64,000 nt of DNA from an uncultured virus (IMG/VR IMGVR_UViG_3300011223_000001) (IMGVR_UViG_3300011223_000001:186001-250000); one strand, 5' to 3'. Counted from the first letter of the stretch, positions 10,212 to 62,695 are shown. Numbers and translations are program-made. Notes: generated from the letters alone by a model not told the origin.

Positions 10212-10640
10212 ATGACCGAAGTTAAAAACCCACTGGCCAAATCGATTGCCTACGCAGAGCGCCATGCACTGCGTGAAAAGATCACCCGCGCTGAAAACAA
10301 CACCATCCAGTCGGCTGACGATCTGTTCGAAGTCACCGCGGCGATGGACGCCGGCCTGACCATGGACCAAGTCAAGAAACTGGACAAGGCCCGTGGTGAG
10401 TTACTGCCAGCAGCGCTGATGATCGGCGGTGAGCTGGCTGAAGAAGCATTCCGTGCCGATCCGAATCTTTCGGAGACAGGCATGAGCTTCAACATGGGTA
10501 GCCACCAGAAGTTCTCGGCCATCTTCCACCGCGACGGCCCAAGCCACGTGACTGCTGTGGTTGAAACCACACACCGCTCGGCTGAATACGACCGTGTGCA
10601 CAAACACCTGAACGGCCTGTTCGAGAGCATCAACAACTGA
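10212..10640 (+). CDS. Hypothetical protein ending in the FESINN tag (alternative in-frame start at 9960)
   Basis: GGAG SD before 10212 and AGGAG before 9960; followed by a terminator. Confidence 0.75.
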   Translation: MTEVKNPLAKSIAYAERHALREKITRAENNTIQSADDLFEVTAAMDAGLTMDQVKKLDKARGELLPAALMIGGELAEEAFRADPNLSETGMSFNMGSHQKFSAIFHRDGPSHVTAVVETTHRSAEYDRVHKHLNGLFESINN

Positions 10641-10654
10641 TCTCGACGGCAGAA

Positions 10655-10690
10655 AAAGGAGCCTACGGGCTCCTTTACTTATTTCTTTTT
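10655..10690 (+). terminator. Intrinsic terminator
   Basis: AAAGGAGCC-TACG-GGCTCCTTT plus T-rich tail. Confidence 0.75.
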
Positions 10691-10715
10691 CACCCCAATA
10701 CCAAGAGAGAAACAC

Positions 10716-11990
10716 ATGTCCGAAGCTAAAATGGGTCACCTGGTCGCCATCGAAGGCAACAACGGCGTGGGCAAGTCCACCCAAGTTCAACTGGTGGCAG
10801 AGCTGCTGCGCGAAGCGGGCCACGAAGTGGTTGTTGTGGCCGAGCCCGGTGGTTCGGCACTGGGTACTGCCCTGCGCAAGATCCTCAAAGACCAGCGTGA
10901 AATCCAGCTCAACTACACGACTGAGCTGCTGCTGTTCGGCGCCCAGCGTGACGACATGTACCGCACGGTGATTCGTCCGGCGCTGGATGCGGGCAAAGTG
11001 GTGCTGGCTGACCGCAGCTACTTCTCCACCTACGCCCACCAAGTTCACCCCTTCCAGGGCGAGAACCCAACCATCCTGCAACTGTTCAACATCCAGACCA
11101 GCGTCAACATCGCTCACCTTGGCAACACGCCGCCGATCGTGATCAACCTGGACATGCCAGAAGCCGAGCGTCAAGCCCGCCTGGCAACGATCGAAAAACG
11201 CGAAGAAGACGCGTTCGAAGATCGCGATGCAGCGTACCAAGCCCTGGTGGCAGAAGGTTACGCACTGCTGGTCAACCAGCCGGGTGTCACCACCTTCGAC
11301 GCACAGTTGGACAAAGACGAGCTGGCAGCATTGATCTTCGACCAGGTGCAGGTCAGCATCAACCAGCGTATTACCGAAGCGGCCATCCTGCGTGAGCAAG
11401 CGGCCGAGCGCAAGCGTCTGCACGACGAAGCCCTGGCCCGCGGTGAAGACCCAGAAGCACAAGCGGCGGCGCAAGCGGCTGAAGCAGCCAAGGCCAATCA
11501 GCCAGAAACCCTGTCGTTCGAAGAGATCGAAACCGAGCTCAACAACTCGATCGATTACCACAGCGAACAGCTGATGCAGATCTACAAGGAAGACTTCACT
11601 CCCCACCAGGCTGAGTGGGAAAAGCACAAGGACAACCTGCGCAAGTGGGTGGCGATGCATGTGGCCGAACAGCGCGCCAGCGGCAAAGAGATGGATGCGA
11701 TGACCAGCCACCGTATGGTAAACATGATCACTGGTAACATCGGCCAGATGCTCGGTGCCTTCATGACCTTGGCCAACATCAGCGACATGGTCAAAGCAGC
11801 ACCAGCGGCGCCCGCTGTTGATCTGTACGAAGGCGAATCCAACACAACCCTCGAAGAAACGCAAGTCAAGGCGCGTGGTGCCGACGTGAACATCGGTGCC
11901 GTTGACGAAGCGTCCTACCGGGGTGATTCGGCTGAGTCCAGCTTCCCTGAAGCCGGTGCTCCAGCGGCGAGCGAAAGTAACCAGGCGTAA
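10716..11990 (+). CDS. tmk: Thymidylate kinase with long C-terminal extension
   Basis: IEGNNGVGKSTQ P-loop, EPGG, ELLLFGAQR, DRSYFSTYAHQ motifs. Confidence 0.92.
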   Translation: MSEAKMGHLVAIEGNNGVGKSTQVQLVAELLREAGHEVVVVAEPGGSALGTALRKILKDQREIQLNYTTELLLFGAQRDDMYRTVIRPALDAGKVVLADRSYFSTYAHQVHPFQGENPTILQLFNIQTSVNIAHLGNTPPIVINLDMPEAERQARLATIEKREEDAFEDRDAAYQALVAEGYALLVNQPGVTTFDAQLDKDELAALIFDQVQVSINQRITEAAILREQAAERKRLHDEALARGEDPEAQAAAQAAEAAKANQPETLSFEEIETELNNSIDYHSEQLMQIYKEDFTPHQAEWEKHKDNLRKWVAMHVAEQRASGKEMDAMTSHRMVNMITGNIGQMLGAFMTLANISDMVKAAPAAPAVDLYEGESNTTLEETQVKARGADVNIGAVDEASYRGDSAESSFPEAGAPAASESNQA

Positions 11991-12008
11991 AGCCAAACAG
12001 AAGTAAGA

Positions 12009-12025
12009 TCTATATCACCATGCTG
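12009..12025 (+). promoter_or_regulatory. Early-type promoter
   Basis: TCTATATCACcatgcTG. Confidence 0.75.
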
Positions 12026-12090
12026 GTATGTTGTACAACGTTGATGCGTCAATCAACATGGTGGTATCCCCAACTAGGAGCAATAGAAGA

Positions 12091-12672
12091 ATGAAATGGC
12101 TTTCTGCCGTAGTGCTAACTGTATTGGTTGCAATGGCTGGACCGGTCATGGCGTGCAGTCTGGTAGACTCAGGGCTACCCGACGATGTTCGTAAAGAGCT
12201 CGAACTCAAATGCCTGCAAGCCAGAAAAGCGGTCGCCGAAAAAACAGGTAACGCCGCCATGGATTCTCAGGTGTCTCAAATTTCCAATTATGCCGGCATT
12301 GCCACCGAAGTGGCCAAAGCAGTCGGCTTGGCGGCTAAGGAACTGGGTATCGCCGCCAATGAGTTCATCCTGACACCCGCCGGCATCATCACCATGCTGT
12401 TTGTGGTGTTCAAGGTATTTGGCAAGCTGTTCGCTATGATTGCTATAGCCATTGCAATCAATCTGATCATCTGGCGTCTGGTAAAAAGGATCTGGTACTA
12501 CGAATCCGGCGAAACCATGGAAGTGGTCGGTTGGTTTGGTTGGGGGAAGAAAACCATCCCTGTCATAAAACGCACCACCTACCAAGCGGCCACCGACGGA
12601 CAAGTGATTTTGACGCTTTTCCTTGGCATCATCGCTTTGGGTTCACTGATCATGATTCCTGTATCCAGCTAA
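12091..12672 (+). CDS. Membrane protein with N-terminal signal peptide
   Basis: AGGAG SD; MKWLSAVVLTVLVAMAGPVMA signal-like N-terminus; about three hydrophobic helices. Confidence 0.75.
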   Translation: MKWLSAVVLTVLVAMAGPVMACSLVDSGLPDDVRKELELKCLQARKAVAEKTGNAAMDSQVSQISNYAGIATEVAKAVGLAAKELGIAANEFILTPAGIITMLFVVFKVFGKLFAMIAIAIAINLIIWRLVKRIWYYESGETMEVVGWFGWGKKTIPVIKRTTYQAATDGQVILTLFLGIIALGSLIMIPVSS

Positions 12673-12696
12673 GTTCTACTTGGCTAGACTATGTAT

Positions 12697-12795: not shown

Positions 12796-12829
12796 TGCTG
12801 TCTCACACTATCCCTTTAAGGAATATCTC

Positions 12830-13474: not shown

Positions 13475-13482
13475 GGATACTC

Positions 13483-16345: not shown

Positions 16346-16419
16346 AGGCATGTAGCTTAGTTGGTAGAGCAAACGGCTTTTAACCGTTATTGCGCAGGTT
16401 TCGAAACCTGCCATGCCCG
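16346..16419 (+). tRNA. tRNA-Lys(UUU), atypical
   Basis: Cloverleaf with anticodon arm AACGG-CTTTTAA-CCGTT; A1:C72 mismatch, 8-nt T loop, no encoded CCA. Confidence 0.8.
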
Positions 16420-16440
16420 CTCTCTGACATGGTGAAACGA

Positions 16441-16899
16441 ATGAAGAATGAAGTTGCAGTCCTGACTCTCCCTGCGGTAAACCGCGTTATCCGTTCCATT
16501 GGTTTCGAGGAGGTAATACTCAGCGATCGATGGACGAATGGCGATGAACGTGAGGGGTTGGTGATTGTGCTGGAGTCCGGTTGGCGTGTGGTGTTGGTGG
16601 ATCGGTGTGGGCAGTGCTGCTGCGAACACCGGTACATGAGCACTGATGACGACCTGGATTCTCTGGTAGGCGAAACGCTGGTAGGTATCCGCCACGGTGG
16701 ATGCAATGAAGATGAGGAAGATGAATACGGCGGTGTTGTTGAGGTCGAATTCGCTCTGATTCAGACTGACCGCGATTCCGTGACGATCGGTACCTACAAC
16801 TCCCATAACGGCTACTACGGTGGCCTGGACTTGGCGTTGGTGGTGTACGATCCTGATGGGAACAAGGTAGTTGATCACGTATCGTTTACTGGAGAGTGA
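16441..16899 (+). CDS. Conserved phage hypothetical protein (QxCCE...HNGYYGG family)
   Basis: GQCCCEHRY..DDLDSLVG...HNGYYGG pattern; followed by a UUCG terminator near 16903-16930. Confidence 0.7.
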   Translation: MKNEVAVLTLPAVNRVIRSIGFEEVILSDRWTNGDEREGLVIVLESGWRVVLVDRCGQCCCEHRYMSTDDDLDSLVGETLVGIRHGGCNEDEEDEYGGVVEVEFALIQTDRDSVTIGTYNSHNGYYGGLDLALVVYDPDGNKVVDHVSFTGE

Positions 16900-16945
16900 T
16901 CGGGGGCCTTCGGGCCCTCTTTCTTTTATTCCGTTTGGAGGCACT

Positions 16946-19252: not shown

Positions 19253-19326
19253 TCACTTCGCTTAGGGGGAGAAACGACAGGCTCGCTCCGGCCTGTCGTT
19301 TCTTTTTGAATCCACTTACTTTGAGA

Positions 19327-27215: not shown

Positions 27216-27877
27216 AGTTTTTTGATATACCCGGATCGTGGGCAGGCGTCGGTAGTCGTGAGGCCCCGATGCCTGCTCAGATCCTCATGGTCCGTTATGC
27301 CCGTACCGCCTATGAACTCGGGTTGGGTTCCTTGTACAGCGGTGATGCTATCGCCAGTGACTTTGCCTTTTGGGTCGGGGCGGTGCTGTCGGGTAGTGAG
27401 CACTTCGAGCGGCACAAGCCGAAGATCTTCTTGTCTCGAAACGGTTACCAGAACCGCTGGCATGATGACGCCTTAGGTTTCATCAACGCCAAGACGCTGG
27501 GGCGTGAACGCTGGATGGAAGCCAACCAAATCGCACTAGAAGCCCGTAAGGGTTTTTGGGGTTTAGGTAAGGGCGGTATTGAGCTTGTTACACGCAACCC
27601 GTTCCAGCTACTGGACGTCGACTTAAAACACCCAGTGGCTAAATGTTTGTATTGGGGTATCCCGCAAGGCAAGACCGAGAAAGTCCGCGGTGGTACAAAC
27701 GTGGCCTTACAGGTCGCCATTCGGTTTGGCATCCCTAGGATGAATTTGTACTATGAAGAAAACCAAAGGCTCCTTCAAGCGTGGCTGGAGGAAAAAGAAA
27801 GCAAAGCCAGCTACCCCCGAAACCTCACCGATATCCTCGACTCCCGCCGTACCGATAGCCCTTACCCGGGCTTCTGA
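27203..27877 (+). CDS. SLOG/DprA-like nucleotide-binding protein
   Basis: AGVGSREAP, LYSGDAIASD, RN..Q.L, GGT..A...A...GIP..NL motifs. Confidence 0.7.
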   Translation: MQGIEFFDIPGSWAGVGSREAPMPAQILMVRYARTAYELGLGSLYSGDAIASDFAFWVGAVLSGSEHFERHKPKIFLSRNGYQNRWHDDALGFINAKTLGRERWMEANQIALEARKGFWGLGKGGIELVTRNPFQLLDVDLKHPVAKCLYWGIPQGKTEKVRGGTNVALQVAIRFGIPRMNLYYEENQRLLQAWLEEKESKASYPRNLTDILDSRRTDSPYPGF

Positions 27878-28085
27878 AGCTGAGACGATCGCCAAAGACA
27901 TGTTGTTTGTTCGCGACAACTTAGTCTGCTCCATCGAACCGGACCAGGTCTACACGGCTAACGAGGTCATCGACTTTGTTGACCAAGGGATCAATGGTGT
28001 CCTTAAAGTAGTAGAACAGCAATGCGAACCCTGGAGTTTGACCATTGACATCTGCCAAGCCTACTTCGACAAAATCAACAGCTGA
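27753..28085 (+). CDS. IN[NST]-tag family protein (start uncertain; overlaps the SLOG gene)
   Basis: GINGVLKVVE...CQAYFDKINS-stop. Confidence 0.55.
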   Translation: MKKTKGSFKRGWRKKKAKPATPETSPISSTPAVPIALTRASEAETIAKDMLFVRDNLVCSIEPDQVYTANEVIDFVDQGINGVLKVVEQQCEPWSLTIDICQAYFDKINS

Positions 28086-28551: not shown

Positions 28552-28960
28552 TCAGCAACTCGCCCAAGATACCCAAGACCAGCTGAACAAGTGCTTTCAT
28601 GCCGTCGAATTGGTCAGTCTATCGGAGCTACTTAAACGCGCCACGTGCAGTATACCAGTCGAAAAGACCGCGGCGGATAAACGCCCGGTGTTGGTACACC
28701 TCACCTCTGGTCAGTGTTCCGACACCCTCACTGAACTCAACAAGGCCTATCTGGCGATGTACCCGGGTACGGACATTACACTGTCTGAACGTATCAGTGA
28801 CAGCGGTTACCTGTTTAAATTTGTTGACCGCGTTTTCGAGTGGGAGCATGTTCACGCTGTCTTAAGTGCATGCACTGAAAGCGGGGACACTGTCGTAGCC
28901 ATCGCTTGGGAAAAGCTTGAGAGGAGTCCGGACCATGACACTGATCGCAACGTCGACTGA
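28541..28960 (+). CDS. Hypothetical protein
   Basis: GAGGT SD; 139 aa. Confidence 0.65.
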   Translation: MFANQQLAQDTQDQLNKCFHAVELVSLSELLKRATCSIPVEKTAADKRPVLVHLTSGQCSDTLTELNKAYLAMYPGTDITLSERISDSGYLFKFVDRVFEWEHVHAVLSACTESGDTVVAIAWEKLERSPDHDTDRNVD

Positions 28961-29609
28961 TCTTTACAAGGCGCTGAGCACCGCAAAACACCCGTATTAC
29001 CACAGCAGCGAGTACGAAGAAACACACGAGCACATGTCTGAATTCCTGGCCGCATGGAAGGATTACGACATCGACCTCAACCGCGTCATCCGTTGGGACA
29101 TCCGGGAGGTCAAAGACGACTTCAGCAACCCTAACGACATGACCGACGAAGATCGTCGTTACTTCGGCGAGCCGGGGTCGCAGTATGCCTTAGTGCATTT
29201 CGTGGCGCCACGCAAGGGGCACACGTTCACCCACCGCATCTTGAACCTCATGCCTGGTGAAGTGCCGCAGTTGTACGTGTTCCTCAAAAAGCACTGGGAA
29301 TACACGCAGCAACTGTGGGACCCACTCCCACACATCGAGTATGTACCGCCGACCACACCCCGTAGCCGGTTCTTGGATCGCGTAAAAACGGTCACTAAAG
29401 ACCACGAGATCGGTGAAAGCGGTATGCCTGGGCACTTCCGCATCCAGGCCAACAAGCAGATCCATCAAGCAGTGGCCAGTGTGCTGGGTGTTATCGATGA
29501 TAGCTATGTATTGTTGGAACGACCCGAAGACGAGGATATGCCGCTAGACGCCGGGTTGAACATTGCTGGTGAACTCGCCAAAACATACTTTGCGGATATC
29601 AACACATGA
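28935..29609 (+). CDS. Phage domain fused to IN[NST]-tag domain
   Basis: GAGGAG SD; N-terminal HPYY...DIDLNRVIRWD...RKG...LWDPL domain; C-terminal VLGVIDDSYVLL...[16 protein letters not shown]. Confidence 0.75.
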   Translation: MTLIATSTDLYKALSTAKHPYYHSSEYEETHEHMSEFLAAWKDYDIDLNRVIRWDIREVKDDFSNPNDMTDEDRRYFGEPGSQYALVHFVAPRKGHTFTHRILNLMPGEVPQLYVFLKKHWEYTQQLWDPLPHIEYVPPTTPRSRFLDRVKTVTKDHEIGESGMPGHFRIQANKQIHQAVASVLGVIDDSYVLLERPEDEDMPLDAGLNIAGELAKTYFADINT

Positions 29610-31582: not shown

Positions 31583-32602
31583 ATGCACAAGTATGCAGTG
31601 CTGTATCACCGTGGTTGCAACGACGGTCTAGCTTCGGCTTGGGCTGCGAAGCGCTACCTGGGCGACGAAGCAATCTACTTGCCGTACCAATACGGCGACA
31701 AGGTCCCGGATACCATCAATGGTCTGCACCTGTTCCTCGTGGACCTTTCCATGTCGACTGAACAGTTGTTCGACCTGGTAGCGACCCGTGTGCCGTCTGT
31801 CATGGTCATCGACCACCACAAATCGGCTGAGGCCGATCTGGCACCGTTTCGCACTATCCGTGGCATCACCGAACTGAACCAACGCCTTAACGACGAGTCG
31901 CTGTCGGAAGAACCGAAGGTCTTCAAGTTCTTCAGCACGGGTCACTGCGGTGCGATTCTGACTTGGGCTTTCTTCGCCGATGTGTCGCCGAATGATTCCC
32001 AGGCGCGCAAGCTGATGCCGCAACAGCTGATCTACATCGACGATTACGACCGCTGGGTCAAGCAATACCCCGAGACCGATGTCATCAATACCTGGTTGAT
32101 CAACGGCAAGTCTGATCCTGATCGCGTGGGTCAGATCATGTCGCCTGATCGCATCAGCATCAATCGTGAAGTGATGCTGATTGGTCAAACCCTGATCGAC
32201 TACGATGCTCGCATTACTCGGTCGGTGATTCGCGATTACGCAGTTTACCGCGACCACTACGATGCAACCAGACGGGTCATGATCAAAGTGGCTTGGGTCA
32301 ATGCCCCGCACCACCTGCGCAACCGCATCAGCGACGAGGTGCTTAAGCAAGAGAAGGCCGATATCGTTGTGTGTTACAGCATGCGCCGCGATAAGATCAT
32401 CTACAGCTTGCGCGGTAACGAGGCGGTGGATGTAAGCATCATTGCCGCAGCCTTCGGCGGTGGTGGTCATCCGGCAGCAGCGGCCTTTGCCATCACCCGT
32501 GACGTTGACCATGGTCTGCCGCACTTTGCGTTGCTTTCACCGGCCACGTGGCGTGAACGCATTCGCTTTATGTGGTCGGTTTTCTGGAATCGTCAGAAGT
32601 AA
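31583..32602 (+). CDS. DHH/DHHA1 phosphoesterase (NrnB-like)
   Basis: YHRGCNDG, LVDLS, IDHHKSA, SLRG, GGGGHPAAAAF. Confidence 0.88.
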   Translation: MHKYAVLYHRGCNDGLASAWAAKRYLGDEAIYLPYQYGDKVPDTINGLHLFLVDLSMSTEQLFDLVATRVPSVMVIDHHKSAEADLAPFRTIRGITELNQRLNDESLSEEPKVFKFFSTGHCGAILTWAFFADVSPNDSQARKLMPQQLIYIDDYDRWVKQYPETDVINTWLINGKSDPDRVGQIMSPDRISINREVMLIGQTLIDYDARITRSVIRDYAVYRDHYDATRRVMIKVAWVNAPHHLRNRISDEVLKQEKADIVVCYSMRRDKIIYSLRGNEAVDVSIIAAAFGGGGHPAAAAFAITRDVDHGLPHFALLSPATWRERIRFMWSVFWNRQK

Positions 32603-35038: not shown

Positions 35039-35488
35039 ATGGACCACAAGAAGATCAAATACAACGGCGTAAAGCTTGAGTTCCTGGAACAAACACGCAG
35101 GAACCTTACCACGGTGCAAGCAGCCGGCGACAATAAACGGATCGTGATCCGCGATATACGTCCCGGTGATGATTCTTTCGTTTGTCAGTTCATTGGCACT
35201 AACGGTATCCGTGCGTACCATGTCGCCCTCGTGGGTGACACTGGAATATGTGCTGCCATCGCACTGGCCCAGGCATTCTATCTGTCGCGACACCTTGATG
35301 ACATCGGGTGTCTGGAGCAACTTTGTTTTAACGCACAAGGTGTTCTGTACCAGCACACGTACGAGCGCGACACCAAATACGACCAACCTATCCTCATCTA
35401 CCTTGAGCACCTCAGTAAGGAACCCTCGCACCATGGACCACAAGGCGTACAACCGAAAACTGGTCGAACACCTCTTCGACTTGTTTGA
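35039..35488 (+). CDS. Hypothetical protein with C-terminal GRTPLRLV
   Basis: 149 aa; 3' end overlaps the sspB-like gene. Confidence 0.55.
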   Translation: MDHKKIKYNGVKLEFLEQTRRNLTTVQAAGDNKRIVIRDIRPGDDSFVCQFIGTNGIRAYHVALVGDTGICAAIALAQAFYLSRHLDDIGCLEQLCFNAQGVLYQHTYERDTKYDQPILIYLEHLSKEPSHHGPQGVQPKTGRTPLRLV

Positions 35489-35885
35489 AACCGCGCAGGG
35501 CGAACGTTGGCATATGGCCTTTGACCTGTCGGTCATCGAACATAAGCAAGGATTGGAGCGGTACGTCCAACCCGACGGTACTTTGGTCCTCAACTTCCAC
35601 CCGGTGGCCTGCCGTAACTTCCACATCGGTGCTGAGCACCTCACCTTCAACATGTCGCTCGGCGGTACCAAGCAACATCTGATCCTCCCGCATTATGCCG
35701 TACGCGGTATCATGCTCGAACTTGAAGAAGGGACGATAGGTATCCCAGCGTGTCCGGTGATGATCCAAGAACAGGATTTTCACACCCCCACTGAACCCGA
35801 CCAACCAAAAGAAGGCGATGGCGTGGTTAATGCCGACACCAACGTCATCTCCATGTTCAACCGTAAAGCCCCCACCAAGGAATAA
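35433..35885 (+). CDS. SspB-like ClpXP adaptor
   Basis: LVLNFHPVACRNFHI..EHLTFNMSLGG....LILP..AVRGI matches the SspB core (IVLNI.P.AV.NL.L.N..V.FNARFGG....V.VP..AV.AI); flexible tail ending NVISMFNRK; TAAGGA SD. Confidence 0.72.
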   Translation: MDHKAYNRKLVEHLFDLFETAQGERWHMAFDLSVIEHKQGLERYVQPDGTLVLNFHPVACRNFHIGAEHLTFNMSLGGTKQHLILPHYAVRGIMLELEEGTIGIPACPVMIQEQDFHTPTEPDQPKEGDGVVNADTNVISMFNRKAPTKE

Positions 35886-37300: not shown

Positions 37301-37358
37301 CGGCATAGAGCGCTGGGGGTTCGCCCCTAGCGTTTCTTTTTATTTCGTGAGGGGTTTT

Positions 37359-37817
37359 ATGCGTTACGTCACGTTCTACCCTCAAATCGAAGCACAGACC
37401 CTTACAGAGCCACATTACGTTATCAGCATCGTGGATAAGACCCCAGTGGTATTCCCATGTCATCATCACGCCATCCTACGGTTGGTGTTCGATGACATCG
37501 AGCAATTCGCTGAAGGTCAAAACCTCTTTTCGATCAGTCAAGCCCGGTCAATCATGAGTTGGGTAAAGGACGTACCGGAAGGGGCCACGGTGGTTGTTCA
37601 CTGTTATGCCGGCGTGAGTCGATCAGCGGCGGTTGCTAAGTTCCTCCATCAGCACTTAGGTTTTATGCTGCGGCTGGACCCACCGTGTTATGGTAAGCTC
37701 GATCGCTATAACGGTCACGTGTATGGACTCCTGCGACTACTCGACGCCGACAAGAGCGCCTTGCGTCTGATGTTAGACGAGGAGTATGAACGTCAAGCAG
37801 TTATTGTGAGGTGGTGA
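37359..37817 (+). CDS. Predicted protein-tyrosine/dual-specificity-type phosphatase
   Basis: L.FDDI acid loop and VHCYAGVSRSAAVA (CX5R). Confidence 0.82.
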   Translation: MRYVTFYPQIEAQTLTEPHYVISIVDKTPVVFPCHHHAILRLVFDDIEQFAEGQNLFSISQARSIMSWVKDVPEGATVVVHCYAGVSRSAAVAKFLHQHLGFMLRLDPPCYGKLDRYNGHVYGLLRLLDADKSALRLMLDEEYERQAVIVRW

Positions 37818-37818: not shown

Positions 37819-38142
37819 ATGAATGTCAACTTGTTAGTGGAATTGCCTGATCCGTTAGAGCAGGCCCAATCAGCCCTTGTGGAGGAACTCTTTCACGCTG
37901 CTCGTTACGAAGCTGACTGGACCATGGAGAAAATGGACCTCAGTGATGAAATCCGTGGTCTAGTGCATTATGCTGCCCGCAATACCGTGGTGGGTGTACT
38001 TGAAGTGCTCGACGGCAATACCGATCTCGGTCCCTATGTCTTGTTGCCCAAAGGCATGGTATCGGGTACTGACAATGTCCCCACCATGACTGGGGGTCTG
38101 GCTGAGCTGTTCAGCGACTTCTACGAGGAGATTAATAATTGA
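37819..38142 (+). CDS. IN[NST]-tag family protein (tandem copy 1)
   Basis: LPDPL...VLEVLDG...YVLLP...GGLAELFSDFYEEINN. Confidence 0.75.
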   Translation: MNVNLLVELPDPLEQAQSALVEELFHAARYEADWTMEKMDLSDEIRGLVHYAARNTVVGVLEVLDGNTDLGPYVLLPKGMVSGTDNVPTMTGGLAELFSDFYEEINN

Positions 38143-38480
38143 CTAACTTTCGCTTAAACATACCCGACCCACTGGCTGACGAGCGACGGTTACTGGGTCA
38201 TTCGTTGTTGAATGCTTATCAGTCAGTCATGTTTGATTTGCTCGAGCGTTTTCCTGAAGCCGAGTTCAAACCTGTTATCCAGGAATCGGTAGAGGCAGCG
38301 ATGGTGGGTACCCTCAACGTTTTCGATGGTCAAGCGAATGCGTTTGGCGGAATCGAATACGTGGTCCTACCGCTGGGAATGGTTGAGTGTATCGACAGGG
38401 AATGGATTGTACCGATGCCTAACCTTGCTGGTAGCCTAGCCTCCGTACTTAAAAACGACTTTGGTCGTATCAACAGTTGA
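38139..38480 (+). CDS. IN[NST]-tag family protein (tandem copy 2)
   Basis: TTG start with GAGGAG SD; IPDPL...TLNVFDG...YVVLP...NLAGSL...FGRINS. Confidence 0.75.
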   Translation: MTNFRLNIPDPLADERRLLGHSLLNAYQSVMFDLLERFPEAEFKPVIQESVEAAMVGTLNVFDGQANAFGGIEYVVLPLGMVECIDREWIVPMPNLAGSLASVLKNDFGRINS

Positions 38481-38487
38481 GGTGCCT

Positions 38488-38823
38488 ATGTCTGTCATTA
38501 ACATCGAGCTGGTGTTACCTGACCCACTCAAAGAAGCACGGAACGGTTTCCTGGATGGTATCGTGGATATCCGCGAACAGGTAATCTGTAGACATGGTGG
38601 GGTACTTGACGAGAACAGTGAGTACCAAGGTCCGCATGTCGCGGCAATCAATGACCTCACCAGACAGTTCCTGTACTTCCTCGACGGGGGTGAACCCACC
38701 AACGGTGGCTACACGGTGCTACCGAACCGCATGATCAACAACGGTCTAGCCGGTACGCTGCCGAATATCGCCGGTAAGCTGGGCCCTACCTACGACATGT
38801 TCTTTGAAGACATCAACAACTGA
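38488..38823 (+). CDS. IN[NST]-tag family protein (tandem copy 3)
   Basis: LPDPL...FLYFLDG...YTVLP...NIAGKL...FEDINN. Confidence 0.75.
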   Translation: MSVINIELVLPDPLKEARNGFLDGIVDIREQVICRHGGVLDENSEYQGPHVAAINDLTRQFLYFLDGGEPTNGGYTVLPNRMINNGLAGTLPNIAGKLGPTYDMFFEDINN

Positions 38824-38831: not shown

Positions 38832-39236
38832 ATGAAAGCCGATAAAGACTCACTCTTGGGGCAAGCACTCAACCGTGCCGTCACCAATGCACTAGAAGGT
38901 AAACCGGACGTGCTACATGACGCTCGGGTAGACCTGATCGAAAAGGTACTGGATGCCCGTGACGATGCGTATGAAGACGTCATGATGCACCTACCGGCCG
39001 AGTTCCACGAGCCGGCACACCGTGCGGTTACCAAGGCGCTGGTGACGACGCTGGGCGTGCTAGACGCAGACTACGTCGTGTTGCCTAGCGCCGGGTACCT
39101 TGACAAGAATAGTCCCGCTGCGTATGTAGTGATGCCTCTAGGCGACGGCAATGAAGCCACCGACGGCAATACCTTCAACGTAGCTGGTGACCTTGCCGTT
39201 ATCTTCAACACCATCTACGACGACATCAACACCTAA
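38832..39236 (+). CDS. IN[NST]-tag family protein (tandem copy 4)
   Basis: TLGVLDADYVVLP...NVAGDL...YDDINT; UUCG terminator 39240-39278 follows. Confidence 0.75.
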   Translation: MKADKDSLLGQALNRAVTNALEGKPDVLHDARVDLIEKVLDARDDAYEDVMMHLPAEFHEPAHRAVTKALVTTLGVLDADYVVLPSAGYLDKNSPAAYVVMPLGDGNEATDGNTFNVAGDLAVIFNTIYDDINT

Positions 39237-39293
39237 CGACATAAAGCCTGCCCTTCGGGGCAGGTATTCTTTTTTATTTAACACAAACTCACA

Positions 39294-46376: not shown

Positions 46377-46744
46377 AGAAGTTTACGAAACACTACGTCG
46401 ATGGGATGGTCGTTCCCTCCCGCATTGACATTTTAAATCGCTTTGGCGTCTGTATGGAGACTGAGCGCAGGCCGATTAAAGAAGGTAAAGCAGACGGTTA
46501 TTTCGGCGTCTGGCACGAAGGTCTTTTGATCGGTGTGTGGCGCTTCAACATCATCGATGGCTTAGTGGGTGCGCCACAGGCGTATCTGCTGAACTGGGCC
46601 GCTATGTTCACCTGGCTAATGGAACAACTCACAGCGTATATGCCGCCTGACTTCCACTTAGCGGGTTGTCGTATACGGGCCGATCTGGTTCCGCATATCA
46701 AAACCCTGCAAGAGGGTTCCACCACGACCGCTATTTTGTTCTGA
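46349..46744 (+). CDS. Hypothetical protein
   Basis: 131 aa. Confidence 0.6.
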   Translation: MQTAIDGALEKFTKHYVDGMVVPSRIDILNRFGVCMETERRPIKEGKADGYFGVWHEGLLIGVWRFNIIDGLVGAPQAYLLNWAAMFTWLMEQLTAYMPPDFHLAGCRIRADLVPHIKTLQEGSTTTAILF

Positions 46745-46752
46745 GGTGTGCA

Positions 46753-47541
46753 ATGGACTATCGATCGATACAACATACGACTACCGATAATTATCGAGAG
46801 TCGACTGACCGACCGTTGATGCGCGTGCGGTTCCTAGTGCCAAATCAAACGGCTCCCGTGAACTGGCCTATTGACAAACCGTACTGGTGTACGGGAAGCA
46901 GCAGTGACGGCAACTACGTGGTGGCCTATGTCGAAAGTCTGGACGAGCTTCAACGCAATTGGCCCGATGCGTTCGACATCGACGTAATGGATGAAGATCT
47001 CACTGCCATCGGCTATTCTTCAAGGATGCCTAAGCCAGATTGGCTTGAGCCTGAGGCCCTAGCCAGAGCACGACATGAGTACGCCGGTTTTCCGGTTTAC
47101 GGGGAGTCTGGGGCTTTTCCCTACACCCCAGCAGGCTATGCCGACGCTTGCCGGGTAAGCCACAAGTTTGCCACGTCGGTGTTCGATGGAAAACTGTCGG
47201 TCGAGCAAATGTTATTCATCCACCACGTAAACATAGATGTGTGGCGGACACCTGAACATGAACGTGAAGCACTGCTCAACACACCAGCAGATCCGGCACT
47301 GACTCCCACCCGTGAACTCCATGATGCCCTGCGCAGCACTATCCACCGTGTCGTGGACTTTAATTGCGGCGGCCGGAGTATTGAAGAGAACCAAGAGTTC
47401 ACCGCTGAGCTAATGTCTGGCATCGGCCATGTGTTACAGGGTGATGGAGTGACCACAGGTTACATCGTAGCGCCACGAGCGGAGCCGTCGCTGGACCTGT
47501 CACTGCACCTTGCGTCGTATTTCAGTTTGATCAATAACTAA
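46753..47541 (+). CDS. Multi-domain protein ending in IN[NST]-tag domain
   Basis: N-terminal PVNWP...YWCTG...VAY...WP.A...RMPKPDW domain; C-terminal IGHVLQG...GYIVAP...DLSLHLASYFSLINN. Confidence 0.75.
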   Translation: MDYRSIQHTTTDNYRESTDRPLMRVRFLVPNQTAPVNWPIDKPYWCTGSSSDGNYVVAYVESLDELQRNWPDAFDIDVMDEDLTAIGYSSRMPKPDWLEPEALARARHEYAGFPVYGESGAFPYTPAGYADACRVSHKFATSVFDGKLSVEQMLFIHHVNIDVWRTPEHEREALLNTPADPALTPTRELHDALRSTIHRVVDFNCGGRSIEENQEFTAELMSGIGHVLQGDGVTTGYIVAPRAEPSLDLSLHLASYFSLINN

Positions 47542-48411: not shown

Positions 48412-49110
48412 ATGTCTAAAGAACTGCAAGCAACCCCTGGTCAGTTGGCTGAACTGAAGTTGATCGTGCCAGGTATTGAACGTCGCATCAACGAATCCCA
48501 GATGGACACCTTAGCGTGCAACCTGGACTTCATCGTCGCCAATAACACCCCGGTGCGTGAACACCTCGCGTACATGGTGCGTGTGGCGCGTGCCACTGAG
48601 CACGACCTGGTTGACGTGGTGCGTACCATCAACTTTGCTAGACTTGGTCCGATCATGGAAGCAAGGAAGTTTGCAGCCATCGAATCGCAGGGTTATGCCA
48701 TTCAACCGATCATGGCCAGCGTCTACAAACCGGCTTACGCATACACTATCGGTCTGTCGGGTGTAGTTGGGTTTGAGCTATTTGCCCATGCCGGCGGTGA
48801 TGCGGCGCTGCTTGCAAGTGTCGTTCAGCACTATGCTGAACTTGCTAAACAACATGAACATATCGAGCACGAGCGCAACGATACGGCCAGCATGCGCAAC
48901 CGTCCTAAACAGGGCGTGCGTACATTGGCTGTTCCAGTGGAAGTCTTGGTAGCCAAGCAGGACTTTCTTATGCAGACCTTCGGCGACCCTATCAAACGGG
49001 TATACCAGATCTTGATCGCCGATGCCGACAATCGCCTACCGGGTGAATGTGGCTACGACAATGCTGCTTGGCCACAGCCTCGTTTACCCCGTCCGATTCT
49101 TGGAGGTTAA
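48412..49110 (+). CDS. Protein with DUF4262-like C-terminal domain
   Basis: PAYAYTIGLS...EL...Q...D...RLP.E.GY. Confidence 0.55.
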   Translation: MSKELQATPGQLAELKLIVPGIERRINESQMDTLACNLDFIVANNTPVREHLAYMVRVARATEHDLVDVVRTINFARLGPIMEARKFAAIESQGYAIQPIMASVYKPAYAYTIGLSGVVGFELFAHAGGDAALLASVVQHYAELAKQHEHIEHERNDTASMRNRPKQGVRTLAVPVEVLVAKQDFLMQTFGDPIKRVYQILIADADNRLPGECGYDNAAWPQPRLPRPILGG

Positions 49111-50943: not shown

Positions 50944-51636
50944 GTGACGCCGCTGCTAAAACAACTGCAAGACGAGATCGTTGATTACCACCACGCTGAA
51001 TGTGTTAATACGCTGGCACCTTATCACAACCTTGCACACATGGTCTCCGTGTGGGAAATCGCACAGAGGTTGTGGGCGGCCGAGAAAGCGCTGCCGCATT
51101 TCGTGGCGTTCGAACCGGAAGAAGTGTCGTTGGCGAAACTGATGGTTGGCACGCTGTTCCACGACGTGCACCATAGTGGTGGGCGTATGGATGATCGTTC
51201 AAACATCCTTCAGGCGATCCGTGAGATCAAGCAGTTCGTGTTGATTAAGTCCAAGGTGCTCAACGATCTCTTCAGTCGTAAGTACCCATCGGAAATGGGC
51301 AGTATCCTTTATGGGTCGTTGGCCATCGTAGACTGCACTGAGTTCCCGTTTGTCAAAGAACCCAAGACAGCCCTCGAACGCATCATGCGTGATGCGGATA
51401 TCCTTTATGCCGCGAACTCCAAAGATCCAAAGGTGATCATGGAGTACCTGCGTACCGAGATCGAAACGGCACGTCAACACCAAGTCACCTACGAGGACAT
51501 GCTGCAAGGCCAGATGGCTTTCATGGCTGGTTGTAAGCTCTATACCGCAGCCGGTCAAGCGATGTGGGATAAGTTGGCTGAACCCTATTTGGCGCAGCTC
51601 AAAGCTTACGCACCGCGTCCTAATATCCCCGCCTAA
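50944..51636 (+). CDS. HD-domain phosphohydrolase (PDE-like YHN..H)
   Basis: PYHNLAH, LFHDVHHSG, T.FP, RDADI. Confidence 0.8.
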   Translation: MTPLLKQLQDEIVDYHHAECVNTLAPYHNLAHMVSVWEIAQRLWAAEKALPHFVAFEPEEVSLAKLMVGTLFHDVHHSGGRMDDRSNILQAIREIKQFVLIKSKVLNDLFSRKYPSEMGSILYGSLAIVDCTEFPFVKEPKTALERIMRDADILYAANSKDPKVIMEYLRTEIETARQHQVTYEDMLQGQMAFMAGCKLYTAAGQAMWDKLAEPYLAQLKAYAPRPNIPA

Positions 51637-56956: not shown

Positions 56957-57484
56957 ATGACTCAACTGCCTAATGCTTTCGGTAACACCCCGGGCTTCGA
57001 GGGTGCACAAACCGCAGCTCCATCGCTCCTCACCGGGAAACCTGTTCGTCTGGCGGACATCATCGCCGGTCAGTTCGCTGACAAGCGCCGCATGGGTACC
57101 CATCCTGAGCGTATAGTCGCTGCACTGAAGGCGGAATATCCGGATCTGGCAGCGGCGATTCAGGAAACCGGCGAATACGTCGTTGTACTCTGCGCTGTAA
57201 ACATCGAGCAAGCCAAGGCCAACGAAAGCCAGTACATGGGCCAGCGTTTGAACGGCAGTACGTATCAGCCAGGTTACATGAATCACGGCGGTATGATGGG
57301 CCTTGGCTTCAGCATTGCCGTGTTTGCAGGTTCGGCCGGTACGGGGGTGCAATTTAACCTCCGCCCAAACTTCGACCACGGTATCAGCCAACTGGGTGAA
57401 GCCGGTATCCTGAACCTCGTGCTGGATCTGCTGACCAAAGGCACCATCAACAAGAACGTCGGCTTCAGTCAGGCGATCGAATGA
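56957..57484 (+). CDS. Hypothetical protein
   Basis: AGGAG SD; UUCG terminator 57490-57520 follows. Confidence 0.7.
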   Translation: MTQLPNAFGNTPGFEGAQTAAPSLLTGKPVRLADIIAGQFADKRRMGTHPERIVAALKAEYPDLAAAIQETGEYVVVLCAVNIEQAKANESQYMGQRLNGSTYQPGYMNHGGMMGLGFSIAVFAGSAGTGVQFNLRPNFDHGISQLGEAGILNLVLDLLTKGTINKNVGFSQAIE

Positions 57485-57567
57485 ACGTGGGGGCCTTCGG
57501 CCCCTGCTTCTTTTTTCTTTTTATGCTGTCTGCAAGATAATACCGGCATTGCCATTATACAGAACTC

Positions 57568-57627: not shown

Positions 57628-57654
57628 CTTGCTGTGCAAACCAAAGGAGGCTAC

Positions 57655-57954
57655 ATGGAAACGAAGAAAGCCCAAACCTCGATCGAAGAGTTGCATGAGG
57701 TCATGGAGATGGTTAATGACACGTTCTATGGCGTGTTGTCGTTTAACCGGAACGGTGCTGTAGCCAACACCGTGGAAGAGGGGATGTCACCAGAACAACA
57801 GGCATTGGTGGTCAATGCTGTTAATGCTGGGGTGCGTGCTACCTTAAGCTCCATCGAAGAACTGGATGGAGAAATACGGTTCCACAGCAATGGCTGCACC
57901 GCTGTCTTGGGGGGTGATCTTTGTCGGGGTATGTTTGGTGAAATCAATTCGTAA
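57655..57954 (+). CDS. IN[NST]-tag family protein
   Basis: AAGGAGG SD; AVNAGVRATLSSIE...LGGDLCRGMFGEINS. Confidence 0.72.
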   Translation: METKKAQTSIEELHEVMEMVNDTFYGVLSFNRNGAVANTVEEGMSPEQQALVVNAVNAGVRATLSSIEELDGEIRFHSNGCTAVLGGDLCRGMFGEINS

Positions 57955-60429: not shown

Positions 60430-60507
60430 GGCAAACCCAAACAAACAACGGGGGGTGCCAACCGAGCACCCACCTTCCCCAACTCATCGATTTTAAGGAA
60501 TAATAAC

Positions 60508-61320
60508 ATGTCCGCTCTTTATACATCCGATGACATCGTGCATGGCTATCACATTCTGCATAAGCGCAGTTTGCTTGACGTCTTTCTGTTGGCTGCACGT
60601 CTTTGTGTACTGGCTGAACGCAGACCCATGCAAGTGGTGTTGAAAAAAGGCCTCAATACCCCGACCGAGATCGAAAGCTTCGAGGTCAAAGGATTCAAGG
60701 CATACCGTGCCGAGCAGGTAGGAAATAATCTCCCGAGGTGGCGCATCGCGGCTCTAATCGATGCACCCGCAATCGGTCGTTTGTACACCGAGCTAGCTCA
60801 GGCAGGCTGGGGTAGTCAGCAAGTGCTGACCTGCATAAACACAGGCTTTAATCAAGAAGCAGAACACCTCGACACACGGGGTGCCTACATGGCACTACGA
60901 CCGGAAGACTGGTTCAGTGTGGTGCAGGAGTACACCACACTGAGGGCAACGATGGTCGATGCCGTCCACCTACCGGACTACACCACGCAGGCATTGTCTG
61001 TTAACGCCCGGGTACATTGGATGCCCACTACCGAATTAGCGGCGTTCCCAGACATCCCCATGTATCGGGTGGTGGCGCAGTTCCCGCTAAGCTGTGATCA
61101 CGATCGAGTGGTTGACACCCTGATCGAGCGGGTGCCGTGTTTTGACGGCATTGGGCCGGCTTTGTTGAAAGTTCACAGCAAAGACCTGTGCACCCCGGGA
61201 CAGCTCCAACAGCTGTTATTCAAACCACAACCCACCTCCATGTCCGGAACACACGTCTTCAGTCCATGGTTCCAGGAAAACGTACTTGACAAGCTCCCCG
61301 CAGAGCTGCGCTACAACTGA
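60508..61320 (+). CDS. Paralogous triplet, member 3
   Basis: YRVVAQ...VDTLI...SPWFQENVLDKLP. Confidence 0.75.
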   Translation: MSALYTSDDIVHGYHILHKRSLLDVFLLAARLCVLAERRPMQVVLKKGLNTPTEIESFEVKGFKAYRAEQVGNNLPRWRIAALIDAPAIGRLYTELAQAGWGSQQVLTCINTGFNQEAEHLDTRGAYMALRPEDWFSVVQEYTTLRATMVDAVHLPDYTTQALSVNARVHWMPTTELAAFPDIPMYRVVAQFPLSCDHDRVVDTLIERVPCFDGIGPALLKVHSKDLCTPGQLQQLLFKPQPTSMSGTHVFSPWFQENVLDKLPAELRYN

Positions 61321-61335
61321 CGAAAAGGGTGGATC

Positions 61336-61608
61336 GTGAACCTGTATCTGCTGCATGACATAACCAATGCATTTGATGATCGCGGTGGAATCGCTATGGC
61401 GGTGATCGCTGCTGAGTCAGAAGACGACGCACGTTTGACCATAATTATCGACACCCACCATGGCGAGAATCAGTACCTTGATCCGCCCCGCTATGCCTGC
61501 GACTTGATTGGCACCACCAGCCTGCCGGCCGGTGTAGTTTGTGTTGATCACGACTATGACTATCTGCGCGTCGGGTACCCGAACCGTCGAGTGCCGACGC
61601 CACGCTAG
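61336..61608 (+). CDS. Small phage protein (paralogue of 58344-58604)
   Basis: AVIAAESEDDAR...IGT....GV. Confidence 0.65.
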   Translation: MNLYLLHDITNAFDDRGGIAMAVIAAESEDDARLTIIIDTHHGENQYLDPPRYACDLIGTTSLPAGVVCVDHDYDYLRVGYPNRRVPTPR

Positions 61609-61670
61609 TAAAAACCGACCGTACTGGCAACGGTATGTGTACCAACCCTTTTCATGGAAAGTGACCCAAA

Positions 61671-62039
61671 ATGACCACCACCGTTCAGGTGACTCAGCGT
61701 AAACCCAACCCCTCCAAACAGTCCTTCAGCTCGTGGCAAGAGCGTCAGAAGCAAGACCGTGGTGTTCGAACACCGTCGGTTGAAACCCGTCCGTACGAAG
61801 AGATCCGGGCAGAGCGCAAATCGATGGCTAAGCCGAATCCACCAGCCGAACCCGTCGTGTTCAAGGACATCGTGCTGAACAAGCGCTACACGTCCAAGCG
61901 TGTCGGCAAAACCGTCCACGTTTATCCTGTGGAAGTAAAGAAGAACAAGGTCGTGCTCAAACGCGATCTTGAGGCCAAGGATAGCTTCACTGAATCCCGG
62001 GCCAACTTCGACAAGTACTTCGTGCTTGACGAGGCTTAA
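61671..62039 (+). CDS. Basic hypothetical protein
   Basis: 122 aa. Confidence 0.65.
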   Translation: MTTTVQVTQRKPNPSKQSFSSWQERQKQDRGVRTPSVETRPYEEIRAERKSMAKPNPPAEPVVFKDIVLNKRYTSKRVGKTVHVYPVEVKKNKVVLKRDLEAKDSFTESRANFDKYFVLDEA

Positions 62040-62042
62040 TGG

Positions 62043-62282
62043 GTGAGGATGGTTGAGTATTACCGCCGCCTTATGAAACGGCTACTGAATCGTTGGGAAT
62101 ACTGGCGTCTACTCGGTGAAATCGAGCGGAACGGTGGTGTTGTCAAAAATAAAGTGGCCACCTGCAAACAGTGTACGCCCGAGAAAACATGTCGTCCGGG
62201 CAACTACTGTGCGTCTACGTCGAAGCTGTATCTTTACACGTGGCGTTTGCGCAGGCTGGACAATGAATATCGGCGGATTTAA
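62043..62282 (+). CDS. Small basic Cys-containing protein
   Basis: 79 aa; CKQC....C....YC. Confidence 0.5.
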   Translation: MRMVEYYRRLMKRLLNRWEYWRLLGEIERNGGVVKNKVATCKQCTPEKTCRPGNYCASTSKLYLYTWRLRRLDNEYRRI

Positions 62283-62296
62283 TTGGAGCAATCCCC

Positions 62297-62695
62297 ATGA
62301 GCTACGATAACGATGATGATGTTGTAGTAGACCCGGAACTCGTAATGGAGGAACGGGACGAAGACGATGACGAGGAGATTCTGTCTCCTGCTGTGCAGAA
62401 GATCCAAGAGCTTCAGACCGAGTTTGTGCAGGGCGTTCAGAAGGTTCTCGAACCACTGATCACCCAGAACCCAGAACACCGGGGCTCGATCGAAGCGACG
62501 GCCGAAGGTATCCTTGGCCTGATCGAAGGTGGTGCTGACGATGGCTACCTGCTGGTCAAGCGCGAAGACGCCAACTTCGCCATGGTGCCCTGCGCCCGTG
62601 AAGTGTACGAAGAGCACCTGCGTGACGATGTCGAGCCAACCGGTCTCGACCTCTCGCGCGGCCTGCTGGCGATGTTCGACGACGTTAACAGCTGA
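62297..62695 (+). CDS. IN[NST]-tag family protein with acidic N-terminus
   Basis: GGAG SD; GILGLIEGG..DGYLLV...DLSRGLLAMFDDVNS. Confidence 0.75.
   Translation: MSYDNDDDVVVDPELVMEERDEDDDEEILSPAVQKIQELQTEFVQGVQKVLEPLITQNPEHRGSIEATAEGILGLIEGGADDGYLLVKREDANFAMVPCAREVYEEHLRDDVEPTGLDLSRGLLAMFDDVNS

Follow-up and report, generated by a model that had tools for sequence, protein, structure and literature searches.

A short helical C-terminal tail common to around twelve small, uncharacterised proteins of two or more unrelated families in a phiKZ-group jumbo phage

Why should proteins scattered along a phage genome end in nearly the same six residues? The question is raised by a 64,000-nucleotide stretch (the window) of an uncultured virus (IMG/VR IMGVR_UViG_3300011223_000001:186001-250000), where a first-pass annotation had listed ten open reading frames (ORFs) with the pattern [FY]xx[IV]N[NST] next to the stop codon. 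The hexapeptide indeed directly precedes the stop in all ten (ends at 10640, 28085, 29609, 38142, 38480, 38823, 39236, 47541, 57954 and 62695). The window is part of a 268,693-bp (268.7-kb) genome that is a relative of Pseudomonas phage Noxifer and is placed in the phiKZ group by a multisubunit RNA polymerase and gp181/gp186/gp188 synteny in common. Six-frame translation of the whole genome gives 3340 ORFs of at least 40 aa from stop to stop; the strict motif terminates 11 of them, against 0.26 expected from the 24 occurrences of the pattern at any position in their 312,140 residues, and the proposed C-terminal excess is thereby borne out. All eleven ORFs lie on the plus strand, the eleventh (K, genome 255712-255981) some 6 kb beyond the window end. 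Conservation of the hexapeptide is at the protein level and not the DNA level, as had also been suggested: the codons vary (TTC/TTT/TAC, ATC/ATT/GTT/GTC, AAC/AAT, seven different last codons, stops TGA/TAA), the 18-nt tail sequences have a mean pairwise nucleotide identity of 0.59, and no exact word common to two of them exceeds 13 nt, a length reached in one pair. Those window proteins in which Pfam recognises an enzyme domain all lack the tail, and no description of the tail was found in literature searches. This short helical tail closes around twelve small, uncharacterised proteins in all, which fall into two or more unrelated families.

Ten of the eleven tagged ORFs (B-K) form a single fast-diverging family based on a module of ~100 aa that is free-standing or fused behind other domains. 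A shared domain had been claimed for nine of the ten listed proteins, and this holds (9/10; 10/11 genome-wide). A profile made from the four tandem genes only (D-G) has K, C, J and I as its top non-self matches (E 0.056-0.94), two of which align upstream of the tail; the iterated family profile finds all ten at E ≤1e-15, with the caveat that they are already members of it. D-G, C and A match PHROG profiles (E 1e-21 to 1e-48), D-G doing so to phrog_18616 (E 5.8e-21 to 1.5e-25). The phiKZ-type member matches phrog_11061 (phiKZ gp258 type, 3.8e-60) and weakly phrog_18616, and B, H, I, J and K have no match to phrog_18616, phrog_11061, phrog_7880 or phrog_16459. These four PHROG families match by sequence but are without functional annotation. 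A search of 1.84 billion database representatives gave 28 accepted hits, 24 of which align through the last residue; 19 end in the strict motif, or 24 if D is allowed last. The tail is the best-conserved block of the family, with 2.57 bits per column compared with 1.52 for columns outside the last 20. The tagged module is C-terminal behind differing N-terminal parts in C, H, P0016, P0021, P0026, P0028, P0032 and P0034. The sole member in which the domain is internal, PA7 63065-63790 (241 aa), has lost the motif.

The family members of the window are all encoded on the plus strand. Protein B (27753..28085) is a minimal member (family profile E 7.4e-16), which probably starts later than 27753 to give the ~61 aa annotated in Noxifer (186 nt). 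Protein C (28917..29609) consists of an N-terminal phrog_7880 domain (E 2.6e-48) fused to the tagged module, with the family profile on residues 145-236; residues 43-137/149 match 30 Vibrio/Aeromonas phage records that do not carry the C-terminal module. The tandem paralogues D (37819..38142), E (38139..38480), F (38461..38823, probably starting at 38488, which gives the 111-aa form on record) and G (38832..39236) follow a terminator-like hairpin and T run (37308..37335, plus strand; 12-pair stem, 7 GC pairs) that is the upstream limit of a unit containing a phosphatase-like gene and D-G. A second such element (39246..39265, plus strand; 8-pair stem, 6 GC pairs) lies directly after G, the final gene ahead of it. 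Protein H (46666..47541) has an N-terminal part of ~200 aa, followed by the tagged module (family profile on residues 204-296, E 2.3e-15), and PHROG and Pfam searches returned no match for it. Protein I (57634..57954) matches its Noxifer orthologue at E 1.9e-43 when the tail is masked. Protein J (62297..62695) is directly upstream of the gene for an R2K-clade ATP-grasp protein (62750..63508, plus strand; PF18299, E 7.9e-27).

The remaining tagged protein, A (9954..10640, plus strand), bears the tail yet stands outside the small family. It is the orthologue of phiKZ gp186, 201phi2-1 gp283 and PhiPA3 gp222 (phrog_16459, E 9.3e-32), and tblastn with it matched 67 Pseudomonas phage records, the notes of which name gp186. 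It lies 76 nt upstream of a thymidylate kinase gene, a neighbour kept in 201phi2-1, PhiPA3, PA7 and PS119XW. Its start, previously set at 10212, is probably near 9954, since Noxifer also conserves the longer N-terminus and lengths of 210-230 aa are found in 8 of 11 database homologues. The tail of the gp186 family is kept in 8/8 genomes and in 11/11 database homologues. The first-pass annotation regarded this protein as unrelated to the others, and no similarity to the small family is detectable beyond the last 14-16 residues: hhalign aligns those columns only (probability 5.7-14.7%), a single column is aligned once 8 residues are masked, and profile iteration over six genomes, carried through three rounds, did not bring gp186 into the small family. 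A further tail-bearing pair, 201phi2-1 230865-231290 and Phabio 233942-234370, is also without similarity to the family. In a preprint (bioRxiv 10.1101/2024.07.31.605949), PhiKZ186 is described as transcribed early, and its ASO knock-down led to a strong reduction in plaques; both PHIKZ186 and PHIKZ258 are present in infected-cell proteomics source data (PMC10449902 supplement).

The tail recurs in related jumbo phages, with lineage-specific variants in both families. The same excess is found in six of eight related phage genomes, with 7-12 tails against <1 expected, counted with a generalised motif over ORFs of at least 60 aa that include spurious six-frame ORFs: 12 (0.5 expected) in this genome, 10 (0.45) in Noxifer, 7 (0.73) in PS119XW, 12 (0.65) in Phabio, 7 (0.88) in PhiPA3 and 9 (0.81) in 201phi2-1. 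PA7 (1; 0.47) and Psa21 (1; 0.73) have no statistical excess. In tails selected from the regex lists by visual inspection, the residue at position -2 is N in 11/11 here, 12/12 in Noxifer, 6/6 in PS119XW, 3/3 in PA7 and 4/4 in Psa21, and S in 6/6 in PhiPA3 and 5/7 in 201phi2-1; Phabio has both (7 N, 4 S). The small family contains three orthologous groups by tail-masked reciprocal best hits; in these and in gp186, four groups in all, PS119XW has N at this position, and 201phi2-1 and PhiPA3 have S. The variant does not track the host, as P. aeruginosa is the recorded host of PhiPA3, PS119XW and phiKZ-type phages alike.

Hydrophobic positions in the alignments are spaced i, i+3/4 from the start of N-x-A-G-x-L to the end, and the mean helical hydrophobic moment of the last 18 aa is 0.34 for the small family and 0.53 for gp186. 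An AF2 monomer model of F (pLDDT 81.8, pTM 0.70) has helices at 15-35, 49-66 and 98-110, the last with a block pLDDT of 74-86. The small module is thus modelled as a three-helix bundle with the motif on its last helix, in which the hydrophobic tail residues may be mere core residues. VIA matches of the model are generic helical bundles (AHSP, YqeY and cullin-repeat bundles; residues 10-111, Z 4.2-5.2), with scores that common helical arrangements can also reach and that imply no homology or function. The tail had been taken as a free C-terminal peptide in identical register to the stop codon. The model instead places it within helix 3 of a compact bundle, and the register is not strict, as natural members have 1-8 residues after the motif: two in Noxifer gene 253, one in each of two phiKZ-type members, four in P0009, one in P0018 and eight in a 201phi2-1 ORF. 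Because short extensions occur, the motif appears to be an amphipathic helix end and not a signal read through its carboxylate.

The reading that we prefer, with a probability of roughly 45%, is that the tail is a conserved docking helix, shared by unrelated proteins, for one common partner. In this reading an amphipathic C-terminal helix is conserved, with the pattern N-[IL]-[AS]-G-x-L, an aromatic residue and then [FYW]-x-x-[IV]-[NS]-[NSTG] at the end, and the tag forms its final turn and cap. The tail terminates at least two sequence-unrelated sets in the Pseudomonas phiKZ-group (chimallivirus-type) jumbo phages, here the ~100-aa module in ten copies and the gp186 family in one. The helix would be retained because it docks all tagged proteins onto a single partner, most likely phage-encoded, that recognizes the helix end and not an alpha-carboxylate in fixed register, and the variable remainder of each protein would provide a different activity or target. 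This computational analysis identified no such receptor or partner. The acidic tails of T7 gp2.5 and gp4 dock on T7 DNA polymerase, and T4 proteins bind the gp45 clamp. As in those systems, unrelated proteins of one phage have a similar short tail; theirs dock onto one hub, whereas here 7-13 mostly uncharacterised small proteins per genome bear a helix end with an N/S cap. Several observations weigh against a docking helix. The modelled monomer already has the tail helix within its compact bundle, the lineages are few and related, the mixture at position -2 in Phabio means that the lineage switch is not clean, and PA7 (a phiKZ-type genome) and Psa21 lack the excess. The gp186 family may also be a homologue diverged past detection, which would leave only one superfamily.

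The main rival to a docking helix is a purely structural helix end, in which helix 3 of one fast-evolving superfamily has the motif as its hydrophobic final turn and C-cap, and nothing reads the motif in trans. We consider this possible, if doubtful. The presence of the motif on gp186 and other scaffolds would then be due to divergence past detection or to a terminal helix gained by recombination. The residues N, S and G are common at helix C-caps, and both the polar end and the extra 1-8 residues that are tolerated would be accounted for if the tail were a structural cap. The inclusion of the tail in the compact three-helix model, the i, i+3/4 hydrophobic spacing along it and the assignment of 10/11 copies here to one family are also in agreement with this. 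Set against these points, conservation is higher in the tail than in the helices that would be its packing partners (2.57 vs 1.52 bits), whereas a core helix is expected to drift along with such partners. Moreover, neither gp186 nor the 201phi2-1/Phabio pair retains any similarity to the family once tails are masked, and the N/S state is the same per lineage in four orthologous groups.

The lineage-shared variants in both families are also in keeping with mutual recognition, whereby tail helices bundle together in homo- or hetero-oligomers and the tagged proteins co-evolve with each other and not with a receptor. The amphipathic character of the last 18 aa would suit such bundling, and four members are predicted to be co-transcribed, given their position between the two terminator-like sites. 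The modelled monomer is compact already, and this arrangement is unlikely.

SspB is the classical binder of the C-terminal ssrA tag in the ssrA/SspB/ClpXP pathway, and the phage encodes a 150-aa SspB-like protein (35433..35885, plus strand; Pfam PF04386, 27.8 bits vs a cut-off of 27; PDB SspB chains, E 0.008-0.01) 2 kb upstream of the tandem cluster. As judged from sequence, it is only a candidate reader of the tails. In the SEC-MS data of PMC10449902, the phiKZ counterpart, PHIKZ232 (gp232), eluted together with the nuclear shell protein. The tail might accordingly be thought a degron, passed by the SspB-like protein to a host AAA+ protease for scheduled removal of early proteins, and the pairing of a C-terminal tag with a phage-encoded SspB-family protein does recall the host pathway. 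The domain is in 8/8 genomes compared, but these are all relatives, so their co-occurrence carries little weight, and in other phages the gene is unlinked to tagged genes, 10-24 kb away. In addition, the tails are gene-encoded and unlike the ssrA tag, and no ClpX-binding motif was noticed at the C-terminus of the phage SspB-like protein. Degradation is improbable as the function of the tail.

The leading idea of the first-pass annotation was a sorting signal for the phage nucleus or virion. PTS1 is a C-terminal tripeptide read by Pex5, and PTS1 and PDZ ligands need a free carboxylate in fixed register. The likeness is that of a short terminal motif on unrelated proteins (here the gp186 family and one further pair) in a phage of the phiKZ group, but the extensions of +1, +1, +1, +2, +4 and +8 depart from a fixed register, and the window proteins with Pfam-recognised enzyme domains are without the tail. 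In a recent review (Annu Rev Genet 2025; PMC12908238), nuclear cargo is targeted via surface residues, with no terminal signal sequence. This, together with the early expression of PhiKZ186 described in the preprint, leaves virion loading and phage-nucleus import without support, and sorting is a very improbable role.

Scarcely credible is a substrate mark to whose free C-terminus the neighbouring ATP-grasp ligase adds amino acids, in the manner of RimK on ribosomal protein S6. While the gene begins 55 nt after J, an adjacency kept in Noxifer, and the R2K family is predicted to comprise peptide ligases (PMC7824862), ligase and tail do not co-occur across phages as in RimK/TTL-type systems, phmmer finding the enzyme in 2/6 genomes (this one and Noxifer; not in the tail-bearing PA7, 201phi2-1, PhiPA3 and PS119XW) against 6/6 for the tails. 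The protein, considered as a C-terminus-modifying enzyme, was rejected as a general tail reader.

Returning to the docking helix, a more specific version can be put forward tentatively. Throughout the Pseudomonas nucleus-forming jumbo phages, the tail may be an address label, by which one co-evolving phage-encoded receptor assembles some ten early proteins, not always the same ones, at one site or machine. The dialects of the label would be I-N-N, V-N-T and V-S-N. The assembled set would include the gp186 family, on which plaque formation in phiKZ would depend, and the SspB-like protein would be the first candidate for the receptor.

The hexapeptide tail [FY]xx[IV]N[NST] that the first-pass annotation reported at ten protein C-termini is present immediately before the stop codon in all ten ORFs. 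These are encoded on the + strand and are referred to as A (9954–10640), B (27753–28085), C (28917–29609), D (37819–38142), E (38139–38480), F (38461–38823), G (38832–39236), H (46666–47541), I (57634–57954) and J (62297–62695). An eleventh ORF with the strict motif, K (genome 255712–255981, +), lies past the window; all 11 are + strand ORFs and fall within 195.9–256.0 kb of the genome. Of the 3340 six-frame ORFs of at least 40 aa in the whole genome, 11 end in the strict pattern, where its internal frequency predicts 0.26. The tails are encoded by differing codons and followed by either of two stop codons, with a mean nucleotide identity of 0.59 over 18 nt, and their conservation is therefore at the level of protein and not of DNA, as had been proposed; a DNA repeat or gene conversion is rejected as their cause because the codons differ. 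The observation is genuine: chance is rejected, by a wide margin, on the C-terminal excess both here and in related genomes. A description of the motif was not found in the literature on phiKZ gp186, PHIKZ186/258 and gp232/SspB, but this is weak evidence of absence because a hexapeptide pattern cannot be searched for as text.

The window comprises bases 186001–250000 of a single contig of 268,693 bp and has a G+C content of 51–57%. Landmark genes place the phage within the phiKZ group of Pseudomonas jumbo phages, namely those for a 2287-aa SLT-domain protein, thymidylate kinase, a dCTP deaminase-like protein, thymidylate synthase and an SNF2-type helicase, and the neighbourhoods in 201phi2-1, PhiPA3, PA7 and PS119XW agree with this placement. 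For one tagged protein Pseudomonas phage Noxifer gave the only tblastn match (51% identity), and gene order is the same in both phages. The 2287-aa protein (124–6987, +) carries its SLT transglycosylase domain near residues 1910–1998 and has a Noxifer counterpart annotated as a tail fibre protein. The 266-position Pfam profile aligns to thymidylate synthase (35888–37300, +; 470 aa) in two segments, which suggests a large insertion or an extra domain. A single tRNA-Lys gene with anticodon UUU is found at 16346–16420 (+), the syntenic Noxifer stretch having four tRNA genes, and genes for a DHH/DHHA1 phosphoesterase-like protein (31583–32602, +), a DUF4262 protein (48412–49110, +) and an HD-domain protein (50944–51636, +) are interspersed with small genes that have no known function.

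Most of the tagged proteins belong to one paralogous family. Of the tagged genes, only the four tandem ones, D to G, are connected with one another by phmmer. When a profile of these four was compared with the six-frame translation of the genome, the best non-self matches were K, C, J and I (E 0.056–0.94), the aligned portion of J and I lying upstream of the tail. A 13-sequence profile gave 30 matches among 1.84 billion cluster representatives; two, in which 7 and 11 stretches matched, were left out as repeat proteins. Alignment runs through the last residue in 24 of the 28 matches kept, and the strict motif ends 19 of the 28, or 24 when a final D is accepted; two others have 1 or 4 extra residues and two have D replacing N. 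When the profile had been iterated over six genomes, each of the ten members matched it at E 1e-15 or better, having by then been incorporated into it. The divergent shared domain noticed earlier is thus borne out for 10 of the 11 tagged proteins, B to K. Pfam has no family for eight of the ten tagged proteins of the window, and A and B have sub-threshold matches only. The module is approximately 100 aa long and is free-standing in B, D to G, I, J and K, while in C, H and several database proteins of 154–237 aa it follows other N-terminal parts. In C the N-terminal part (28917–29330, +) is related over residues 43–137 to proteins of large phages of Vibrio (28 records) and Aeromonas (2 records), KVP40 for example, at 30–35% identity, and these 30 relatives are without the tagged module. 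This N-terminal domain is common to otherwise unrelated phage groups.

Beyond this family, the tail is found at the C-terminus of at least one other that is unrelated, conserved and of functional importance, and its variants track lineage. Homologues of protein A, which matches phrog_16459, occur in 67 records of Pseudomonas phages; for 201phi2-1 and PhiPA3 the record notes give a similarity to phiKZ gp186. In this genome, as in 201phi2-1, PhiPA3, PA7 and PS119XW, the gene immediately precedes that for thymidylate kinase. Orthologues of gp186 carry some version of this C-terminal tail in all eight genomes and in all 11 Noxifer-type database homologues. In profile–profile comparison with the small family only the last 14–16 columns align (probability 5.7–14.7%), masking of the last eight residues leaves one aligned column, and the iterated small-family profiles from six genomes never recruit gp186. 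A second orthologous pair, 201phi2-1 230865–231290 and Phabio 233942–234370, likewise carries the tail and shows no similarity to the small family. For these reasons the suggestion that a protein unrelated to the others bears the hexapeptide stands; most copies belong to a single family, but the tail extends to the gp186 family. It is possible that gp186 and the small family share a homology too old for detection. PhiKZ186 is described as an early transcript whose knock-down by ASO strongly cut plaque counts (bioRxiv 10.1101/2024.07.31.605949), and both PHIKZ186 and PHIKZ258 are present in infected-cell proteomics source data (PMC10449902 supplement).

A generalised tail, [FYW]xx[IV][NS][NSTG], was counted at the ends of ORFs of at least 60 aa in eight whole genomes, observed and expected values both including non-coding six-frame ORFs. 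A C-terminal excess is found in Noxifer (10 observed, 0.45 expected), PS119XW (7, 0.73), Phabio (12, 0.65), PhiPA3 (7, 0.88) and 201phi2-1 (9, 0.81), as in this genome (12, 0.5), but not in PA7, which is of phiKZ type (1, 0.47), or Psa21 (1, 0.73). PA7 has two family members with the motif plus one residue, one of them phiKZ gp258, and a third in which the domain is internal and the motif absent. Among plausible genes picked by eye from the regex lists, short or antisense ORFs being left out, the residue before last is always N in this genome (11/11), Noxifer (12/12), PS119XW (6/6), PA7 (3/3) and Psa21 (4/4), and always S in PhiPA3 (6/6); 201phi2-1 has S in five of seven and N in two, and Phabio N in seven of 11 and S in four. 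Reciprocal best hits between tail-masked sequences delimit three small-family orthologous groups across PS119XW, PhiPA3 and 201phi2-1. All three, and the gp186 group, have N in PS119XW and S in the other two phages, so that four genes of two families have shifted the same way within a single clade. This dialect does not track the host, as P. aeruginosa is the recorded host of PhiPA3, of PS119XW and of the phiKZ-type phages alike. Such a pattern is expected of a common constraint that shifts slowly, in a comparison that consists of counts from few and related lineages and in which Phabio is mixed.

We favour the reading that the tail is a common docking helix, a mechanism to which we would assign a probability of roughly 0.45; a docking partner was not found in this analysis. 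Ranked second, and rather unlikely, is a purely structural helix end. AlphaFold2 with a 13-row alignment was confident only for a helical hairpin of F, and with 40 rows it gave a model (pLDDT 81.8, pTM 0.70) with helices at residues 15–35, 49–66 and 98–110, the motif forming the last turn of helix 3. An exhaustive VIA search returned generic helical bundles over residues 10–111 (best Z 5.2); from these helices and matches, the tail forms part of a compact bundle in the model of F, in which its residues would be buried. Polar end residues such as N, S and G fit helix capping. Foldseek with the model found nothing in the PDB at E 0.001 or better and only jumbo-phage hypothetical proteins in BFVD (E 0.06 or worse), and the ESM Atlas held nothing usable for A or F. 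The presence of the tail on gp186, outside the small family, counts in favour of docking and against the purely structural reading. Mutual bundling of the tagged proteins ranks third and is improbable.

The identical register to a free C-terminus that had been claimed is contradicted by natural extensions after the motif: one residue in two phiKZ-type members and in the database match P0018, two in Noxifer gene 253, four in the database match P0009 and eight in a 201phi2-1 ORF. These argue against recognition of the carboxylate in a fixed register. The chain ends right after the motif in the great majority of cases, and the motif is absent from the sole internal copy. Degron, sorting and ligase-substrate readings are minor; in a review of these phages, surface residues, rather than a signal sequence at a terminus, are described as targeting nuclear cargo (PMC12908238, Annu Rev Genet 2025). 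A membrane-targeting helix is dismissed from the sequences because the tails are acidic and not basic, and mimicry of the shell protein's own C-terminus because no ORF of more than 300 aa carries the tail in the eight genomes.

Two candidate readers were considered. An SspB-like protein of 150 aa (35433–35885, +) scores 27.8 bits against a Pfam SspB threshold of 27, and E about 0.01 against solved SspB chains. The domain is found in all eight genomes; it heads longer proteins (ORFs of 246–377 aa) in six phiKZ-type relatives, including the phiKZ counterpart PHIKZ232, and the Noxifer protein is short (~143 aa). Nothing connects the protein with the tails, its gene is unlinked to the tagged genes in other phages, and the literature on gp232/SspB yielded no description of its role in infection. 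Co-folding with F, run without controls, scored 0.00 in both runs and speaks neither for nor against binding. PHIKZ232 is listed among six proteins that co-elute with the shell protein, are enriched in shell samples and are absent from the virion, and most of the tagged constructs tested in the same study were diffuse outside the shell (Fossati et al., PMC10449902). The second candidate, an R2K-clade ATP-grasp protein, is encoded next to J (62750–63508, +; PF18299 E 7.9e-27, PF14243 E 9.1e-20) and belongs to a family described as predicted peptide ligases (PMC7824862). Among six genomes searched its gene occurs in this genome and Noxifer only, and it cannot therefore explain the tails of other phages.

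Genes D to G are co-transcribed with a dual-specificity phosphatase-like gene (37359–37817, +; Pfam DSPc E 3.7e-5, below the cut-off), the unit lying between strong terminator-like hairpins at 37308–37335 and 39246–39265. Homologues of the phosphatase-like gene occur in PhiPA3, PS119XW and 201phi2-1. Another hairpin is found 3' of A, and several + strand genes are followed by a GC-rich hairpin with a TTTCTTTT-type run behind it (10657–10690, 16895–16930, 19275–19310 and 57480–57520, +). TTTCTTTT is the most over-represented 8-mer in the genome (27 copies on the + strand, 10 on the − strand), and the hairpin with its run looks like the usual terminator of this phage.

To our knowledge, most early genes of the phiKZ group are without known function, and the shared tail offers a single experimental way into some ten of them in each genome, and into gp186. 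If the tail is only structural, it would define a large, previously unconnected superfamily, linking PHROGs 18616, 11061 and 7880 with five genes here that lie outside them, and would indicate how that superfamily is built. A common partner, if there is one, would add a new hub to the infection cycle of nucleus-forming phages, and the tail could then be used for delivering or tracing proteins in infected cells.
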